64,000 nt of DNA from Pelagomonas calceolata (Eukaryota), in contig CAKKNE010000002.1 in NCBI GenBank assembly GCA_918797485.1, forward strand, positions 1,364,001 to 1,428,000, given 5' to 3'. A program made the position numbers and the translations under genes. The notes beneath the pieces were generated by a model that was not told where the DNA came from, made no database searches, and saw only the letters and a list, made by a program, of their open reading frames with translations. Of this stretch, positions 2,365-21,852 are shown one piece after another; within the stretch, counting starts at the first letter, position 1; every line of letters begins with the position of its first letter.

Positions 2365-3534
2365 ATGCGGATCGGCAAATGTCCGCGAACCGCGTCCAAA
2401 AGCACTCCGCCTTCACACTGTAACTGCGTGGCGCAATGGATAGCGCATCAGACTTCTAATCTGGGGGTTGCGGGTTCGAGTCCCGCCGTGGTTACACCGA
2501 TTGAGACCGACCGATTGGCGCAACGGTAGCGCGTCAGATTCCAGTCCTGAAGGTTACGTGTTCGAATCACGTATCGGTCACGTCTCCAATCGCACACACA
2601 CAACGAACGACCGATTGGCGCAACGGTAGCGCGTCAGATTCCAGTCCTGAAGGTTACGTGTTCGAATCACGTATCGGTCAGTTCCTTGGCGGCCGGAGAG
2701 CGCGCGCGCCCGGACTGAGTTGCCCGCAACTCACGCGTTCGCCCCCTCGCGCAGGCCACTTCTGCTCGAGCCCGATCTACCCCGGCCACGGCATCGCGTT
2801 CGCGCGCAACGACGCCAAAGTGGTACCGCGGCGGCGTCCGCTCCTTTACTTTCAACCGCGTGGCGCAATGGATAGCGCATCAGACTTCTAATCTGGGGGT
2901 TGCGGGTTCGAGTCCCGCCGTGGTTACGACCGATGGAGACCCTTTGACCGATTGGCGCAACGGTAGCGCGTCAGATTCCAGTCCTGAAGGTTACGTGTTC
3001 GAATCACGTATCGGTCAGGCGTCTCCATCGCACACACACTTATGTGAGAGACCGATTGGCGCAACGGCAGCGCGTCAGATTCCAGTCCTGAAGGTTACGT
3101 GTTCGAATCACGTATCGGTCACATCATCACACACGCCGAGGAGCAACGTCTCACGCGTACGTCCCCCGCCGCAGTTCCACTTCTGCCGCTCGAAATGCCA
3201 CAAGAACTTTAATCTGAAGCGCAACCCGCGGAAAGTCCGCTGGACCAAGGCCTTCCGCAAGGTGCGCGGCAAGGAGATGGCCGTGGACCCGACCTTCGAG
3301 CTCGAGAAGCGGCGGAACCGGCCCGTGAAGTACGACCGGGACCTCGTCGGCGCGACGCTGCGCGCCATGGCGCGGGCCCAGGAGGTCCAGGCGAAGCGGG
3401 CCGCGGCGCACCACAAGAACCGCATGGTCAAGCACCGCGAGAACGACGCCGTGCGCGCGCGCGCGAAGATCGCGGAGCACGAGCTCGCGGCGGGCGGCGG
3501 CACCTTCGAGGCCGGGGACCAGCGGTATGTTTAA
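2365..3534 (+). CDS. RLP24: 60S ribosome biogenesis protein RLP24 (L24e family); exons 2365-2380, 2755-2822, 3175-3534
   Basis: Splicing at GT 2381..AG 2754 and GT 2823..AG 3174 gives [57 protein letters not shown]...RNRPVKYDR, the RLP24/RSL24D1 signature, with phases consistent. Confidence 0.93.
2422..2494 (+). tRNA. tRNA-Arg(UCU), in RLP24 intron 1
   Basis: 73-nt cloverleaf: acceptor AACTGCG/CGTGGTT, anticodon loop CT-TCT-AA, T-loop TTCGAGT. Confidence 0.93.
2509..2580 (+). tRNA. tRNA-Trp(CCA), in RLP24 intron 1
   Basis: 72-nt cloverleaf: acceptor GACCGAT/ATCGGTC, anticodon loop TT-CCA-GT, T-loop TTCGAAT. Confidence 0.92.
2609..2680 (+). tRNA. tRNA-Trp(CCA), in RLP24 intron 1
   Basis: Identical to 2509-2580. 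Confidence 0.92.
2854..2926 (+). tRNA. tRNA-Arg(UCU), in RLP24 intron 2
   Basis: Same as 2422-2494 except C4 (acceptor AACCGCG). Confidence 0.93.
2946..3017 (+). tRNA. tRNA-Trp(CCA), in RLP24 intron 2
   Basis: Identical to 2509-2580. Confidence 0.92.
3050..3121 (+). tRNA. tRNA-Trp(CCA), in RLP24 intron 2
   Basis: Same as the other Trp copies with one D-loop change (GGCAG vs GGTAG). Confidence 0.92.
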
Positions 3535-11766: not shown

Positions 11767-13527
11767 TTACTCACACGCATCGACCATCTGGTTCGGCCCC
11801 CGCGCCAGCGCCACCAAATCAACGTCCGCGCCATCGACGACGCGCGCCGCGCATGCCATAGCCCGCTTCCGCATCTTCCGCAGCTCGGCCGCCGCGGCAC
11901 CAATAGTAATTTCGACAAACACAAGCTCGTCGCCGGGCCGGCACTGGCCGACCTTCCACAGGTCGCACCGCGCGACGACCGCCGGTACACTATAACCTCC
12001 GGTCGTCTGGTGGTCCGCTAGCAATATGACGGGGTTGCCGTCCGGCGGTAATTGTATAGTCCCGGCGGCGCAGGCCTCGGAGAGCTGCTGCCCCCCCTTT
12101 AATGACGCCGCGGCCTCCACCACCACAGCCATGCGGTCCGACCGCGGCGACGCGGTGAACGGGCCCGCGTCCAGCAATTTTGATAGTGCCGCGTCGGCGT
12201 CCGTCTCTGATGTTCCGTCGTCGCTCGCCGGGTCGCCGGGCCCGGGCAGCACGCGCAGCGTCCACGTCCGCGCGCCCGGCGTCCTTCCCATATGATCGTG
12301 CTTCGCCCGGCGCGGCGCCGCGCGGCCGCCCTCTTTGATACACGCGACGCCGTCCCCCGCCGCGAGCGGCGCCGGCCCGAGGCCCGCCCGCACGTCGCTC
12401 GACCGGCTCCCCAACACCAACGGCGCCGCGACGCCGCCCTCCAAACCAACATAGGCCCGCGCGCCGTCCCGCGGGATGCCGAGCCGGAGCTCGTCGCCCG
12501 CGCGCAGCACGACCGCCTCGTTGACTTTACAAGAGACGGAGCCGCCTCCACCTCTCAGTATCGTCGCCTGGCAGTCCGCGCCGGCGACGGAGACGGCCCG
12601 CGTCTCCCTACTCCTTAACCTCAACCCGCCAAGACACTCTAAAACAGCGGCATCGACCTCGTTCCCGACGAGCGCGTTCGCCGTCCGCAGACTCATCTCG
12701 TCCGCGGCGCCGCATCTACTAACACCGCACGACTGGTGCCGTCTTCCTAAATCCTGGACCAGCGTCTGCGGGCCGCCCGCCAGGACCTCGAAGCTCGCGT
12801 CTTCCACACGTTGTGGTGCTTCTTTCACTTGGGGCGCTGCATCGTCCAACGCCGCAACCGCAGAGAACCGGACGGCGTCGCCCGGCTTCAGCAGAGAAGG
12901 CGGCTCCCGGGCCGGGTCGAAGAGCACGGCGTCGGTCCGCCCTAGTAAATGCCAGCCGCCCGGCGTATCCCTCGTATACACGCCCGTCTGGCCCGCCGCG
13001 ACGCCCACGGCGCCCCTTGGTACCAATTGCCGCGGCGTCGGCAGCCGCGGCACCTTTGCCAAACGCTCGTCCAAACCACCAAGATAAGGGAAGCCCCCCG
13101 TAAATCCTAAAAAGTAGACGCGGTACTCCGGCGCGGCATGGACGGCCGCGACGTCGTCCACTCCCGCGATCTCGCCGGCGGCCTCGAGGTCTTCGCCATC
13201 ATACAACACGGGGATCTCGACAACGTTTCGTGTGGCGTCGCCGTCGTCCTCGCGGCTCGCGGCCTCATTTATCCAATTCTCGACGTCGTCCCGCGATATC
13301 TCCGTGCAGTCGTAGTGCACGGCCAGGGACGCGTAGGCGGGCACGGCGTCGGTGACGCCGCGCGGCTTTTCGTTCAGCGCGTCGAGGCGCCTCAAGACAC
13401 TTTTGTTCGTCGCCTCGTCGATACCATTGCCGAAACGCAGGATCAGCGTGCCCTCGCCGGCGGCGCGGAACCAGGGCTGGCTCGAGAGCGCGCGCGTGCG
13501 CGCTGCTGTAGCTGCCATGCGGCGCAT
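11767..13527 (-). CDS. Fused PxpB-PxpC (5-oxoprolinase B/C; allophanate hydrolase subunit 1+2, KipI-KipA-like)
   Basis: DAVPAYASL, YFLGFTGGFPYLGGLD, QTGVYTRDTPGGWHLLGRT (PxpB); QTLVQDLGR, SDRMA, GTIQLPPDGNPVILLADHQTTGGY (PxpC); Arg/Ala/Ser-rich N-terminus. Confidence 0.88.
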   Translation of the reverse strand: MRRMAATAARTRALSSQPWFRAAGEGTLILRFGNGIDEATNKSVLRRLDALNEKPRGVTDAVPAYASLAVHYDCTEISRDDVENWINEAASREDDGDATRNVVEIPVLYDGEDLEAAGEIAGVDDVAAVHAAPEYRVYFLGFTGGFPYLGGLDERLAKVPRLPTPRQLVPRGAVGVAAGQTGVYTRDTPGGWHLLGRTDAVLFDPAREPPSLLKPGDAVRFSAVAALDDAAPQVKEAPQRVEDASFEVLAGGPQTLVQDLGRRHQSCGVSRCGAADEMSLRTANALVGNEVDAAVLECLGGLRLRSRETRAVSVAGADCQATILRGGGGSVSCKVNEAVVLRAGDELRLGIPRDGARAYVGLEGGVAAPLVLGSRSSDVRAGLGPAPLAAGDGVACIKEGGRAAPRRAKHDHMGRTPGARTWTLRVLPGPGDPASDDGTSETDADAALSKLLDAGPFTASPRSDRMAVVVEAAASLKGGQQLSEACAAGTIQLPPDGNPVILLADHQTTGGYSVPAVVARCDLWKVGQCRPGDELVFVEITIGAAAAELRKMRKRAMACAARVVDGADVDLVALARGPNQMVDACE

Positions 13528-13954
13528 TGTGAGTGCTGCACCGCAGTGGTGAGCAGTGCCGAGCGAAATGTGGGTTCGCAAGAACGACAGCAATCAAGCA
13601 CACCTTCCAAATCGAATTGTAACCTTGAGTAATGCTTGGCTTTTGGCTTGGGCAAAGTTCCTGTGGATGCTAGTATCTTTACGACGCTAGCTGCCAGCCG
13701 GGAGGACCGAGGCAAACGACGCGGTTAACCAGCCCGTCTCGCGCGCATAGATCGTCCAGAGGCTCAGTGCACTGCTGCCACAATGCTGCATCGCTGCGGC
13801 TAAGTCAAACGGCTGTCAAGCAGCAGAGCCAAGCACTGCCAGCAAAGCGAGCACAGCACACGCAGCGCCGATGCACTGCCAGAGGCTTGCGAGCACAGCG
13901 TAAAACCGACACGCAACCGCGCTGGTCAGTGCATTAAAACAGCGCCAGGAACCG

Positions 13955-16344: not shown

Positions 16345-16647
16345 TGTCCGCCGCGTGCACGTATGCAGCCGCGCGACGCGCGGTTTTGCGGATTTTTTTG
16401 ACCTCCTAAATCATAGACATACTAGGAATCACTGTCTCGGTGAAGGTGGTAGGCGTAAAACGCACCCTTGGGCGGTTCCTGCGAGGTTTCGGATCGCTGC
16501 GATCGATTGTGAGCCGAGCCGTAACTCTGCCCGCTAAGCGCCGGCGCCCACCAGCTCCTCAGCCGGCCTAGCAGCCCTGGGAGGAGCTTTGTAGGCCTAC
16601 GGGACGCGCGCGCAAACGGGACGCGCGCGGAAACAACGTCACAAAAA

Positions 16648-17286
16648 ATGCGTCGCCGCCTCGCGCTGTACGCACTCCTGCTGGCGCCCGCGGCCGCCGC
16701 CCTACGCCGCGGCGACGCCGCGCCGGCCTTTGTCGGAGAAAACTATGATGGCCAACAGGTCACGCTCGCGTCGGCGACGGGCCCGAAGGGCCTGGTCCTC
16801 TGGTTCTACCCGAAGGCGGGTACCGGCGGCTGAACGCGCGAGGGCGAGAACTTCGAGCGCCTGCGGCCGCAGTTCGAGGCCGCCGGTTATAAAATAGCCG
16901 GCTGCTCGGTGGACCCGCCCGACTACAACCGCAAATTCGCCGAGGAGCACGACTTCGGCTACCCCCTGATCTCGAACGGCGAGGCGGTGATCCGCCAGTT
17001 CGGCGCCTGCCGCCGCGAGGACCGGTGCACGGGCAAGCGGACGACGGCCGTCATCCGCGCGGACGGCACGCTGCTGGACTTCGTCGACCCCTTCGACGCC
17101 GACAGCGGGCCCGACGACCTCCTCAAGCGGCTCGTTGCCGCGGACGGCGCGCCGCCGCTCACGCTCCACGAGCCCGGCGCGCACATGGACGGCCTGGAAC
17201 GCGTGCGGAGGCGTCGCAAGAAGAAGGGCCTGCGCGGCCACGACACCTTCCACCACTCGGGCGAGCACCGGCGTGCGGGCGCGTGA
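16648..17286 (+). CDS. BCP/PrxQ-type peroxiredoxin, selenoprotein (in-frame UGA 16831-16833 read as Sec), with signal peptide
   Basis: GDAAPAF...LVLWFYPKAGTGG*TREG...GCSVDPPDYNRKFAEEHDFGYPLIS...RTTAVI: UGA sits at the peroxidatic Cys of PxxxTxxC and the frame continues. Confidence 0.88.
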
Positions 17287-17291
17287 CGGCG

Positions 17292-17361
17292 CGGCCGGCG
17301 GGACCCGTGACGCGGGCGGGGTTCTTGGTGCGCCCCGCCCGCCGACATCTCCCGCCGACCG
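17292..17361 (+). promoter_or_regulatory. SECIS-like element (GUGA/GA core)
   Basis: Helix I CGGCGGGA/TCCCGCCG; GTGA 17307-17310; helix II GCGGGCGGGGT/GCCCCGCCCGC; GA 17344-17345; directly after the stop of the UGA-containing gene. Confidence 0.75.
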
Positions 17362-17804
17362 AGCTGTCTGGCGTTCTGTACCCCTAATTGTATTTTGTTT
17401 TCCACGAAGTATCCCGCGTCCGCCCTAGAGCTCGCGGCCGGTCTCTCTGCTTGTGCTACAGCGGCAGCGTCGACGGGATATGTTGATTTAGCCCACATCC
17501 GTGGACCCGCGAGACCACCCCCGGGAAGCTCGGTGGCGCGTATTCTTCGAAGAACCAGGAAGCATGTCCTCCCTAGAGCTGCCGGGCGCTCTCCGAGTTT
17601 GCTACTACGGCTCTAGCGTCAATTGACGTCAGCACGTGCCGGGACGTTCAGAAGCCTGCCTCGCCTCGGCCTCGCCGCTGCGATCCCAGCGCCGCAATTT
17701 CTTAGCTGCCCGAGAGCCGGCAGCTGCCCCAGAGGTCCAGCAAACCCTACAGCCACACTCTGCTCAAAGCACGCTGCCTCGCGCCGCGAGAACCAGCAAA
17801 AATC

Positions 17805-19189
17805 ATGAAGCTCCTCTTCCTGCCTACCCTAGCACTCGCGGGCACTTTTGTCGACGACACGGGTGTTACCCACACCACAACCAAAGCAGCGCCGACCATT
17901 ATCGCTGCCGTGGGCGACGCCCTTTCGCTGGCGCCTGTGCGGAAATCATCGCGACCTCGCCGGCCGCCTGTCTCAGTGCTTGATTTCCACGCAGGCTGGA
18001 ACATATGGGCGTGCCCCATGCGCAAATTATCGGCACGTATGGCGAGCGCTGCACCTCCGGCTCTAATCTGAATGGAGCGTACGGCAACGGCAACGCGTGG
18101 GACGCCGACGGAGCTCTCGACCACACCGCCACCGCGCACGACCCCCAGCATTGGCCCACGGACCCCCTGAGCGCCGACGAGGCGGCCATGATCGCTCAGT
18201 CGACCGACCTCACGCCGTCCTGCTCGGGCATCTGCTTCTGGTGCGCCGGCAACGGCAAAGCCGAGATCACGACAATCCTCGACGCGACCGGCTGGCCCGA
18301 CTACATCCTAGTGGGCCCCTACGGCGGCATTTGGCCGCTCGAAGGAACGTACGGCGATCCTTACGTCCTCGGCAACGCCACCGAAAGGGGCGTAAAGGTC
18401 ATCACGATACTCGATAATTATAACGATGGGGCGCTCGGAGTCGGGACCGACCTGGCAGTCCGGGCCGGCTACATCGAAATCACGAAGCGCTACGAGGAGC
18501 TCGCCACTTTCCTCGGCGCCACCACCAACCTCGACTCCGAGAAGAGGACGTTCTGCGCGGAAATGAACAATTTCAAGGCCACGGCGGCGGCGGCGGCCAC
18601 GCGTGGCGTGCGAGCCATGGGGGTTTTCGCGCCCTACATCTCCGTGGCCGGCGGCGTGACAAATGGCTACCTCTACGGCGCCATCACTGACCAGGTATCG
18701 TTCATGCTCGAAGAGTTAGGCATGCAAATATTGCACAATAACAGCGGCTACGCGCCCCTCGATGCCGCCACCCTCGGGAAACACTACCCGATCGACTTCT
18801 GGCTCTACGACGTCCGCGTCACGCTCGATTTTATTTCCGATACATTCTCCACGGCGTGGCCGCACCCGGCACTCGTTGCCGACCAGTACGCGCGCTACCC
18901 CAACGGTGGCCACGTCCACTCGTACGAGCACGGCACCGAGATCCTCAAGCACGTCGGTGAGGCGCTCGGCAAGGCCCAGCGCATCGAGCCCGCTACTACA
19001 TGCACCGAGGTCGCCGACGTCACGGACGTCCACTACCGTACCGTCGGCCTCGGCAAGGGCCAGTACGCCTGCCCCAAGCCCGTCGAGTACGACTGGTGCG
19101 TCAATTACGTGTCGTCCGACTCCGCTTACCTGGCGCGCCCCGGAGTCGTCGTCGCCGCCTTGGCGGCCGTCGCGGCGGCCCTCCTCTGA
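17805..19189 (+). CDS. FBP1-like surface ferric-siderophore binding protein; probable GC-AG intron about 17927-17994
   Basis: Signal peptide, TFVDDTGVTHT start typical of Fe-siderophore binding proteins, IIGTYGE, D-F-W-L-Y-D-V-R and WPHPA segments, hydrophobic C-terminal anchor. Confidence 0.65.
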
Positions 19190-19539
19190 TCAGGAGTGGT
19201 CTGCTGAATTCAAAGTCGAAGAACGCGCGGGCTCCCCCCCACAAGTCGCCCCCAAGTGCTGCCGCGCGAAACTGTCAAAACTAAGTTGCTTGCTTGACTG
19301 CTCGGTGAATTTCCCATGACCGGTGGCGGAGCCATAGAGCACCCGTCCCGACGCCGCGTAGACGCCGCGGCGGGTTCGGGGCTCGAGCTCGTGGCACTTT
19401 GTGTCGGGGGCTGCAGTCCTTTGCCCAGTGCTTCCGCCGTCTGCTGTCAGGCTTCTGCCGCGGCGACCGCGCGCCCCGAACGAGGCCGCGGCGCGCCCCC
19501 GGGCTGCCCCGGCCCCACCAGCGGGGCCGTAGAACAACC

Positions 19540-21852
19540 ATGGAGCCGGCCCAACTGAGCCAACTGCGCCAGCGCGCCGCCCTCGCCACGGCCCTCTTTT
19601 CGCTCCTCGTCTACCTCGTCTGCCTCTGGTGGTGGGAGACGAAGTCCTGGGAGCGCTTCGTCGTCCTCCAGGAGACGCCCAAGTGGATTACCTACGGCAC
19701 GGCCTGGGAGGCGCAGTGGGCCATCGCGGCCTGCGCCCTGGCGCTCTGCGCCGCGGCCTGCGCTTTTTGCGAGGGGTTTGAGTTTCCCGCATCGATCACG
19801 AAGACGCTCGACAAATGGAAGGAGATCGAGCCCGTGCTGCCCGGGAAGTTAAGGCGGTTGCGGCTCGGCGGCGGCCACCGCCTCGGCACGCTGGCCATGG
19901 CGTTGATCCTGTGCCGCATCATCTCCCTCCACATCGTCATGTACCGCGGCTCGCGGCCGAACCACCCGGCGAGCTGGGGCAAGATGGTCGGGACCCTTGA
20001 TTTAACTAATGATGGTAAAAAAGACACGCGCGCGGACCATATTAGAGCTTTGAAGTCGCACGCCTTCCAACTGGGCTGGGACTGCCTGGTGCCCATGTCG
20101 CTATTGGGCATCCCGACGGCGCAGTTCTCGCCACCGTTACGAGCGGTCGGGCTCAGCCACGAGGCGGCGATCGCCTTCCACCGCGTTTTAGGAAGAGCCA
20201 CGCTGATCCTGGTGAGCGGCCACTTCGGGTTTTATGGATTAGCCTGGGCCATGGACGGCGGCGCCAAGCTCTTCTGGGACGAGACGCTGCAGGTCTGCCA
20301 CCACGGGCCGCGCGTCACGAAATTACCAATAGGAAGGGCCTTCCGGCCAGGGTGCATGGGCATCTCGAACTTCTTCGGGTTCCTGGCCTGGGGCTTCGGG
20401 ATTTTGCTGGGCATCGGCAGCTTCTACATGGTGCGGCGCCGGAGCTACGCGCTGTTCATGGCGACGCACCAATTGCATTGGCTCTGGTGGTTCTTCGCGT
20501 GTTTGCACTGGCCCGGGGCCCTGGCATTCGTGGCGCCGGCCTTGATCTTCTTCGTGGCCGACTGCGCGCGACGTTTAGTGTCGGAGAGAACCGTAAGATG
20601 TGCCGTCGTCCGGCACGGCCCGAAGATTACGACCGTACTCGTCCCGTGCCCCGGCTACACGGTCAGGCAGTTGACGGGCGGCGTCTTTCGGTTGCGGTGC
20701 TTCCGGATCAGCCTCATGTGGCACCCGTTCAGCATCGCCGGCGCGGTGGAGACGCCGGACGGGCCCGTGGCGCTGATCCACGTCTTCGACGCGAGGGACG
20801 GCAAGGAGGGCACGTGGACCAATGCCCTCTGCCGGCTGGCGGCGTCGGCGCCGTTCATCGAACTGGAATGCCGCGGGCCGATCATCGCTCCCATCAGTTT
20901 ACAACAAAAGGCCCGGGAGGCGGCGCGCGGCCGGCCGTTGCTGATCGTCGCGGCGGGGTCGGGCCTCGCGCCGGCCGTGGCCTTCCTGCGATTGGTACGG
21001 CTCTCCAACCCGGTGCCGAACCAGCAGATCCGGTTCGTCGCCATCGTCCGGTCGGCCCAGCAAATAGAGGTGCTCGACGCCTTCTGCCTGCCGACGGCCG
21101 GCGCCGCCACCCAGGAGCCGTGGCTCCAGACCGAAATCCACGTCACGCGGCGCAAGGCGGCGCCCACCCTGGAGGGATCCCCGTCGATACCTCGGCACGG
21201 CCGCGTCGTCATACGAGCCGACACTAACGCAAATCTGGTGGCCGTGCCGACGCCCTGGCCCACGAACATCCTCCACGACACGAAGAACCCGCTCACCGGC
21301 GCCGGCGACGAGGAGGAGGCCAAGGAGGCGCCGCGGGTCTCCGACCCGGCGCCGCCAGGCCCAGCTTCTACAGAAGACGCCGTCTCCGTGCTGGCCGCGG
21401 CCTTCTGCTTCGTTTTTTTCAGCTACGTCGTGCTGGCGCGCGAGGACGCGCCCTTCGCCCGCGAGAGCGCCTACTTTTTTGATGAGTCGAAGACGGGAAA
21501 TCCCAACACGATCTCCGGCGGCCTGTCGCTCATCGTGTGCACGGTCGCGGCCTTCGCGGGCGCCTACGGCTCTTTATTAATTTGCGGCTGGGTCCGGCGG
21601 CGGCGGAGCGTCGAGGACGAGGCCGTCTCCCCGAAGGACGTCGAGCTGCGCGTACCATCATCGCCGCGGGGCGCCGAGGTCGTTTTGGCGACGGCGGGCG
21701 CGCGGCCAGATCTCGGCGAGGTCGTGCGGCGCGCGGACGCGCAGCTCGGGCTGCGCGCCGAGGTCCTGGCGGGCGGGCCGGACGTGCTCCTCGAGGGCCT
21801 CGAGGACCGGCTCGGCGGACGGGCCGTCGAGCGGATGACGTGGTCCATGTAA
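19540..21852 (+). CDS. Ferric reductase (FRE/NOX family)
   Basis: Multiple transmembrane helices, heme His pairs (FHRVLG...GH; THQLH...LH), FAD motif WHPFSI, NADPH motif AAGSGLAP. Confidence 0.88.
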   Translation: MEPAQLSQLRQRAALATALFSLLVYLVCLWWWETKSWERFVVLQETPKWITYGTAWEAQWAIAACALALCAAACAFCEGFEFPASITKTLDKWKEIEPVLPGKLRRLRLGGGHRLGTLAMALILCRIISLHIVMYRGSRPNHPASWGKMVGTLDLTNDGKKDTRADHIRALKSHAFQLGWDCLVPMSLLGIPTAQFSPPLRAVGLSHEAAIAFHRVLGRATLILVSGHFGFYGLAWAMDGGAKLFWDETLQVCHHGPRVTKLPIGRAFRPGCMGISNFFGFLAWGFGILLGIGSFYMVRRRSYALFMATHQLHWLWWFFACLHWPGALAFVAPALIFFVADCARRLVSERTVRCAVVRHGPKITTVLVPCPGYTVRQLTGGVFRLRCFRISLMWHPFSIAGAVETPDGPVALIHVFDARDGKEGTWTNALCRLAASAPFIELECRGPIIAPISLQQKAREAARGRPLLIVAAGSGLAPAVAFLRLVRLSNPVPNQQIRFVAIVRSAQQIEVLDAFCLPTAGAATQEPWLQTEIHVTRRKAAPTLEGSPSIPRHGRVVIRADTNANLVAVPTPWPTNILHDTKNPLTGAGDEEEAKEAPRVSDPAPPGPASTEDAVSVLAAAFCFVFFSYVVLAREDAPFARESAYFFDESKTGNPNTISGGLSLIVCTVAAFAGAYGSLLICGWVRRRRSVEDEAVSPKDVELRVPSSPRGAEVVLATAGARPDLGEVVRRADAQLGLRAEVLAGGPDVLLEGLEDRLGGRAVERMTWSM

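Follow-up and report, generated by a model that had tools for sequence, protein, structure and literature searches.

Peroxiredoxins carrying selenocysteine (Sec) have been described in both algae and bacteria. The algal family Sec-AhpC_a, characterized by the motif TGGUT, was reported from Aureococcus anophagefferens, Emiliania huxleyi and Symbiodinium minutum (accessible sections of Jiang et al. 2020, PMC7539508), and Sec-peroxiredoxins are likewise listed for Ostreococcus and Thalassiosira and, in a figure legend, for Aureococcus. In bacteria, the Sec-peroxiredoxin family 'Prx' (PF00578/COG1225, TxxU) is presented as a major marine family in the portions available of two papers (PMC1088965, PMC2398784). 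Here we describe a gene of this kind in a 64-kb window of the Pelagomonas calceolata genome, the window being the whole stretch of DNA that was analysed. Based on one frame, an intact transcript, a peroxiredoxin fold, a TGA in the catalytic column and a SECIS-shaped hairpin in the 3' UTR, we propose that the gene is transcribed unspliced across the UGA, and that the UGA is very probably read as Sec with the aid of the 3' hairpin, yielding a predicted secreted BCP/PrxQ-type selenium peroxidase. The features of the locus are listed in Table 1.

Since Sec-AhpC_a has already been described in algae, the gene is a new or unannotated member of a type of enzyme already known. Its domain, AhpC/TSA, and its TGGUT motif are both those given for algal AhpC_a in the accessible text of PMC7539508, a likeness drawn from the published description of motif and domain, not from sequence. 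The same text makes no mention of a signal peptide, Cys pair, tail, AA-less SECIS or Pelagomonas, and our literature search returned no relevant paper on Pelagomonas selenoproteins. As in the bacterial Prx family, a Bcp-type protein here has Sec, in this case predicted, as its peroxidatic residue. However, the identity to bacterial Sec-Prx proteins is about 25-45%, many of them carry a Cys four residues past the Sec which is missing here, and the query forms its own clade apart from them in a quick tree. Sec recoding in bacteria uses a hairpin within the coding sequence, whereas the putative recoding element of this gene lies in the 3' UTR.

Table 1. Features of the predicted Sec-peroxiredoxin locus, in window coordinates
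Feature	Positions	Strand	Basis
mRNA 5' leader, without ATG	16455..16647	+	read ends, depth
Single-exon CDS for a BCP/PrxQ-type peroxiredoxin of 212 aa, Sec predicted at residue 62	16648..17286	+	frame, Pfam, fold, RNA
Predicted signal peptide, residues 1-18 (cleavage judged by eye)	16648..16701	+	hydropathy, homologue register
Motif PxxxTxxU (P55, T59, U62)	16810..16833	+	P 112/122, T/S 114/122, C 110/122 homologues
In-frame TGA, putative Sec codon	16831..16833	+	unspliced and unchanged in RNA; 37/37 database fragments stop here
Cys121...Cys127 loop, C-x4/5-C pair common to the subfamily	17008..17028	+	relatives
Arg131, conserved active-site arginine	17038..17040	+	R in 119/122 homologues
C-terminal tail, residues 166-212, low confidence, basic run and His-rich end	17143..17283	+	pLDDT 51-64 from residue 171
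Terminal stop, likewise TGA	17284..17286	+	21 nt 5' of SECIS core
SECIS-like element	17296..17357	+	fold, shuffles, window scan

Reading frame and transcript across the TGA

Translation of 16648-17286 (+) gives a single frame of 212 codons plus the stop, with one internal stop, a TGA at residue 62 (16831-16833). This bears out the sequence-only reading, which had assigned the open reading frames 16648..16833 and 16909..17286 to one frame with the TGA as the sole internal stop. The sequence around this stop is LWFYPKAGTGG*TREG, placing the TGA at the peroxidatic position; in the alignment to the PDB sequence of Xanthomonas BCP, FYPKDSTPGCTTE stands opposite FYPKAGTGG*TRE of the gene. When the TGA is read as U, the protein finds its best PDB sequence matches among BCP/PrxQ proteins, which have Cys at the place of the TGA, and Pfam AhpC-TSA (E 4.5e-25) covers residues 22-142, spanning the TGA on either side. 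The GC3 value is 0.94 downstream of the TGA. This value and the Pfam match across both sides of the TGA indicate that the continuity of the frame is not due to chance. In alignment A2 of 122 homologues, the column of residue 62 holds Cys in 110 rows, a gap in 10 and another residue in 2, in agreement with the earlier placement of the TGA at the Cys position of FYPKAxTxG[C]T.

The AlphaFold model, built on a 123-row alignment, has pLDDT values of 97-99 over residues 21-160 and of 51-64 from residue 171 on. Its top Foldseek matches are BcpB, Bcp/Bcp1 and PrxQ, and the nearest solved structures are those of Bcp/PrxQ proteins, so that the modelled fold is of the BCP/PrxQ type. Superposition against M. 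tuberculosis BcpB (5epf), Xanthomonas PrxQ (5iiz/3gkm) and Sulfolobus Bcp1 (3drn) yields TM scores by target of 0.81-0.88 and an rmsd of 2.0-2.7 Å, suggesting the same fold. The catalytic frame of P, T and R is common to the Cys BCP/PrxQ structures and this protein; in contrast, the protein has a predicted Sec instead of Cys, an extra leader, a Cys pair and a tail, and lacks a resolving Cys at E67 or A98. The bacterial Bcp/PrxQ equivalogs NF006960 and NF053650 of NCBIfam match below their cut-offs (55.9 versus 140 and 49.6 versus 260 bits), and the protein is therefore not filed among them.

The transcript was followed in four raw poly(A) runs (X21-X24), all from one sample, with 121-152 reads aligned per run. 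The mean depth over 16810-16850 was 20.5-43.4 in 4/4 runs, all from plus-strand RNA, and no splice joint, indel or alternative base was found at the TGA in any of the four; the sole listed difference lies at position 16998 in one run. Similarly, four contig sets showed neither joints nor other letters at the TGA. Contig X11, from another study and with an RNA label that is a guess, has no differences and no gaps against 16600-17362. Among marine metatranscriptome contigs, X15 bridges the TGA without differences and X19 (16762-16895) retains it with four differences, all synonymous. A further contig, X16, bridges it with 16 differences, none of the 12 listed falling at the TGA. The UGA is thus present in the mature mRNA of the poly(A) sample and in the contig sets. 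Two earlier expectations held here: RNA without an intron over the TGA was found in 4/4 raw runs of one sample plus the contig from another study, and a sequencing error is contradicted by the absence of any other base in the raw runs and that contig.

An assembly error, or removal of the TGA by a short intron, has consequently a negligible chance of being correct. Although the TGA lies within 17 GT..AG pairs whose removal would keep the frame, and a gene model of Chrysophaeum taylorii without 12 residues at the site implies an intron there, no joints or other letters appear in the raw runs or contig sets, splicing would remove the catalytic motif, and the sample analysed refutes both explanations at the 5% level.

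We give almost no credence to an altered genetic code or general read-through by which the UGA would be decoded as Cys or Trp. The window does hold four tRNA-Trp(CCA) genes, but their anticodon is CCA, not UCA, TGA closes both the peroxiredoxin gene and the adjacent one at 18005-19189, and a Trp at this position would not be catalytic. These four belong to a set of six tRNA genes at 2422-3122, made up of two copies of the unit Arg(TCT)-Trp(CCA)-Trp(CCA); tRNA-Sec is absent from the six tRNAs of the 64-kb window.

The transcript starts near 16455, where read ends pile up in 2/4 runs and before which, upstream of 16441, the depth is at most 0.2. The depth over the 5' leader (16455-16645) reaches 78, compared with 3-9 over codons 1-27, and read ends occur at 16637-16643 in two runs. 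GC bias (0.93 in one bin) accounts for part of this gap, and a separate short RNA over 16455-16645 is possible.

Conservation of the stop in relatives

All 37 database proteins with GLVLWFYPKAG, one of which is the window's own call, end at TGG and none continues with Cys, the identity of the stop codon not being visible in protein records. These N-terminal fragments differ from one another elsewhere. Three distant relatives, P0030, P0065 and P0033, are 37-51% identical to the query in alignment A1. P0030 and P0065 are fragments starting downstream of the active site. P0033 is CTAYLR_001406 (KAJ8600432.1) of Chrysophaeum taylorii, a pelagophyte, and its model lacks exactly the 12 residues FYPKAGTGGUTR around U62, which reads as a gene prediction dodging a TGA. 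Together with the long-branched P0090, these three cluster with the query in the quick tree (SH-aLRT 96), and all retain Cys121, a second Cys 5-6 residues later and R131. Protein database searches revealed no full-length Cys member of the query clade with an intact active site. The concern that orthologues might conserve neither UGA nor Cys is answered by the relatives, which keep a stop or a Cys at the position of residue 62.

These comparisons also bear on whether the gene is a transcribed pseudogene, which lost its function when the codon of the catalytic Cys turned into a genuine stop by mutation. A change from TGY to TGA takes only one base, and an insertion after FGACR is present in some relatives (P0026, P0125, P0225 and P0226). 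However, the stop is fixed in 37/37 fragments that vary elsewhere, the indels listed in relatives preserve or restore the frame, GC3 stays high downstream, R131 persists in orthologues at 37-51% identity, which are likewise truncated or gapped at the site, and the window has a single SECIS-shaped element, situated behind this very gene. We regard decay of the gene as very improbable, and are highly confident that it is a real selenoprotein gene. Classification of variants covered 29 of the 40 listed differences (21 further ones are unlisted), leaving out 7 from the UTR and 4 that fall inside one indel. The synonymous share was 9/10 before the TGA and 10/19 after it, 9/19 being non-synonymous; the share after the TGA is thus only moderate, and GC3 there is nonetheless 0.94. 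As a separate observation, the calls of the four environmental relatives named above switch to an unrelated common sequence immediately past FGACR, which suggests a polymorphic intron or introner insertion.

The pattern PKAxTGG-TGA-T was found at no fewer than 120 metagenome loci; among the 120 listed, tblastn identifies 118 as peroxiredoxins, and in 111 the frame remains open for at least 40 residues past the TGA. As the pattern required TGA, it gives no Sec:Cys ratio. The bulk of the listed loci look bacterial, none of the 120 is a close orthologue of the window gene, and viral contigs gave 0 matches. In the quick tree, for which 37 of 102 usable loci were hand-picked, the 38 Sec rows require 11 label changes; its deep nodes are unsettled, and we claim no donor or transfer. 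Among the matches listed, L002-L120 constitute a big family of PKAFTGG-U-TxEC peroxiredoxins from soil, sediment and marine metagenomes, many members having a Cys four, not five, residues past the Sec.

The subfamily falls into an annotation blind spot, as the protein searches brought up nothing of it but fragments, frameshifted calls and one model whose active site is cut away. Variants are common in marine metagenomes, with clusters of up to 241 members, so that a scavenger of peroxide, predicted to be selenium-dependent and probably extracellular, goes uncounted.

The SECIS-like hairpin in the 3' UTR

Nine bases past the true stop starts a hairpin with the architecture of a SECIS element. 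It consists of helix I of 8 bp (17296-17303/17350-17357), a 5' core of G plus UGAC (17307-17311), a perfect helix II of 10 bp (17312-17321/17333-17342), an apical loop of 11 nt without AA or CC, and the 3' core CGAC (17343-17346). The hairpin is more stable than expected, with a z of -4.4 and 0/200 shuffles folding equally well. A geometry scan over both strands of the window returned this 3' UTR as its single match, whereas 100 simulated windows gave 0.46 loose and 0 strict matches per window, or about 0.001 per 300-nt UTR. The core lies 474 nt past the putative Sec codon and 21 nt past the terminal TGA. In the accessible part of PMC3753652, the minimum spacing between Sec codon and SECIS, determined for deiodinase 1, is given as 51-111 nt. 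The terminal UGA is thus taken to act as a stop, lying closer to the core than this minimum. Since this mRNA holds one UGA far from the SECIS and another near it, the distance rule could be tested within a single transcript. The UGA of the SECIS core is in frame with the terminal TGA, eight codons on, and read-through would add just eight residues.

Similar to eukaryotic type I and Ostreococcus GUGA SECIS elements, as described in the sections seen of PMC2375036 and PMC3753652, the hairpin has two helices around a GA/GA quartet with a 5' UGAN, lies in the 3' UTR and is farther than 51-111 nt from the Sec codon; the G before the core is likewise the rule in Ostreococcus (PMC2375036, in part). 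However, it lacks the unpaired AA or CC 10-13 nt past the quartet, its 3' core is CGAC instead of the consensus KGAW (PMC3753652, in part), and a long mini-stem is missing. The search pattern NTGA__AA/CC__GA, as given in the available text of PMC2375036, would pass the hairpin over. A partly accessible paper gives the AA consensus together with loop variation in Asgard archaea (PMC11227280). Because AA/CC past the quartet is absent, we term the element SECIS-like, not canonical. Rfam returned no SECIS match at E up to 10; this null result is uninformative, since Rfam also misses the AUGA/AAA element of locus L001. That locus (minus strand, match at 1501-1526) encodes a leader-bearing TGG*T peroxiredoxin of 39% identity and carries, 89 nt past its TAA, a canonical-looking AUGA/AAA, type II-like SECIS, the only one among 63 homologous loci when helix I was relaxed to 5 bp. 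It is probably another eukaryotic Sec-AhpC_a.

The raw-read depth over the hairpin is 0-0.7, the local GC content being 0.80-0.88. With raw depth near zero, the evidence that the mRNA includes the hairpin comes from X11, the contig with a guessed RNA label, and from a trace in X23. No contig of a relative spans the hairpin.

Two other candidates for a recoding signal were rejected: a second, canonical SECIS downstream (16834-17804) gave one pattern match with just 2/10 helix pairs, and a stem of the bacterial or redefinition type after the UGA was not significant (z -1.5). It is accordingly improbable that Sec is inserted by such another signal, with a hairpin that is no working SECIS or only a weak, selenium-gated one. 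Three departures from the consensus (the G before the core, CGAC, and no AA/CC), the poor read cover and a stem that can form 4 nt past the UGA speak for this possibility. Against it stand the SECIS geometry with its low chance expectation, the insignificance of that stem, the lack of any canonical element within 16834-17804, and the Ostreococcus precedent for the G (PMC2375036, in part). We regard the 3' UTR hairpin as the likely aid to Sec insertion.

In this role, the hairpin lends itself naturally to testing whether eukaryotic Sec insertion requires the apical adenosines. Of the features of the gene, only the AA-less SECIS is potentially new. Our literature search found no AA-less algal SECIS, which does not establish its absence from print (Gobler 2011/2013 may show one). 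A broader reading, which we consider doubtful and put forward only tentatively, holds that pelagophytes recode UGA via a SECIS class without apical AA/CC and with a CGAC core that is missed by SECIS-first searches, and that the gene in addition stands for a secreted PrxQ subfamily that is Sec-only and has a Cys pair of its own. If such an AA-less class is true, the selenoproteomes of pelagophytes, already record-sized, are undercounted.

Predicted chemistry, location and neighbouring genes

The standard eukaryotic route of Sec insertion runs through SBP2, eEFSec and Sec-tRNA. By extension from this biology, SBP2 would bind the GA/GA kink-turn of the hairpin, and eEFSec with Sec-tRNA would decode UGA62, 474 nt upstream of the core. 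Provided that the TGA is decoded, the protein carries the PxxxT/SxxC(U) motif and the conserved Arg. By analogy to other peroxiredoxins, the selenolate of Sec62 would be held in place by P55, T59 and R131 and would attack H2O2 or an organic peroxide to form a selenenic acid, which would then be re-reduced by an outside thiol; the reduction of peroxide by a selenolate, giving a selenenic acid that thiols reduce, is described in the accessible part of PMC7231847. A resolving Cys is found neither at +5, where E67 stands instead (Cys in 45/122 homologues), nor in helix alpha3, where A98 lies opposite Xanthomonas C84, and the protein does not fit a 2-Cys PrxQ of either the alpha2 or the alpha3 type. 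As both usual resolving sites lack Cys, a 1-Sec enzyme with an external thiol reductant is the most likely prediction. For the pair Cys121-Cys127, a structural disulfide appears somewhat more likely than a resolving pair.

The sequence-only reading had placed a signal peptide before the TGA, and a hydrophobic leader is seen in the hydropathy profile, with values of about 2 in the 9-residue windows that begin at residues 4-11. The register of leaderless homologues puts the start of the peroxiredoxin domain at about residue 19; 21 residues precede G22 here, compared with 3-7 in the leaderless homologues and 8 or fewer in 47/115 rows. The C. taylorii orthologue bears a similar leader. The signal peptide would send the protein to the ER, the periplastid space or the cell surface. 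Of the earlier suggestion that the protein is secreted or plastid-routed, the secretory part is favoured and the plastid part is unlikely, because the domain begins directly after the signal peptide and leaves no spacer for a transit peptide between them. The accessible text of PMC4329603 calls the transit length of bipartite plastid leaders not critical, so that the likelihood of the plastid stroma is lowered, not eliminated. The same text gives F/W/Y/L at +1 after the signal peptide as the criterion for the plastid stroma; if cleavage follows A18, a site judged by eye, the +1 residue would be L19, and L is allowed by the ASAFind rules. A His/basic tail had also been proposed and is present, with a RRRRKKK run and a His-rich end. 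The tail is retained in P0030 at about 50% overall identity, and its basic part may, speculatively, tether the protein at its destination.

A SET/MYND gene lies upstream in divergent orientation, 110 nt from the transcript start. Downstream, where the sequence-only reading had seen an iron-reductase pair, lies a ferric reductase gene at 19399-21852 (PF01794, E 1.2e-12). The gene between it and the peroxiredoxin has just a weak, sub-threshold Peripla_BP_2 match (E 0.07) and Atlas values of 0.82-0.86, a lead only. This gene (17805-19189) has no PDB sequence match, and bears an N-terminal leader and a C-terminal hydrophobic end. The two genes are reminiscent of diatom FBP1/FRE2 as described in the available part of PMC7966952, making the 17805-19189 gene a candidate FBP1-like partner of the ferric reductase. 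The main text of a pelagophyte iron paper, as far as accessible, makes no mention of peroxiredoxin or seleno- (PMC13284251). The 17805-19189 gene contains an insertion at about 17927-17994 with inverted ends and a 4-nt direct repeat, and its removal as a GC..AG intron would unite the two frames of the gene. This insertion may be introner-like. Elsewhere in the window, 11767-13593(-) encodes a 608-aa protein that resembles a carboxyltransferase and in which CT_C_D and CT_A_B are fused; in bacteria, CT_C_D and CT_A_B are usually separate proteins.
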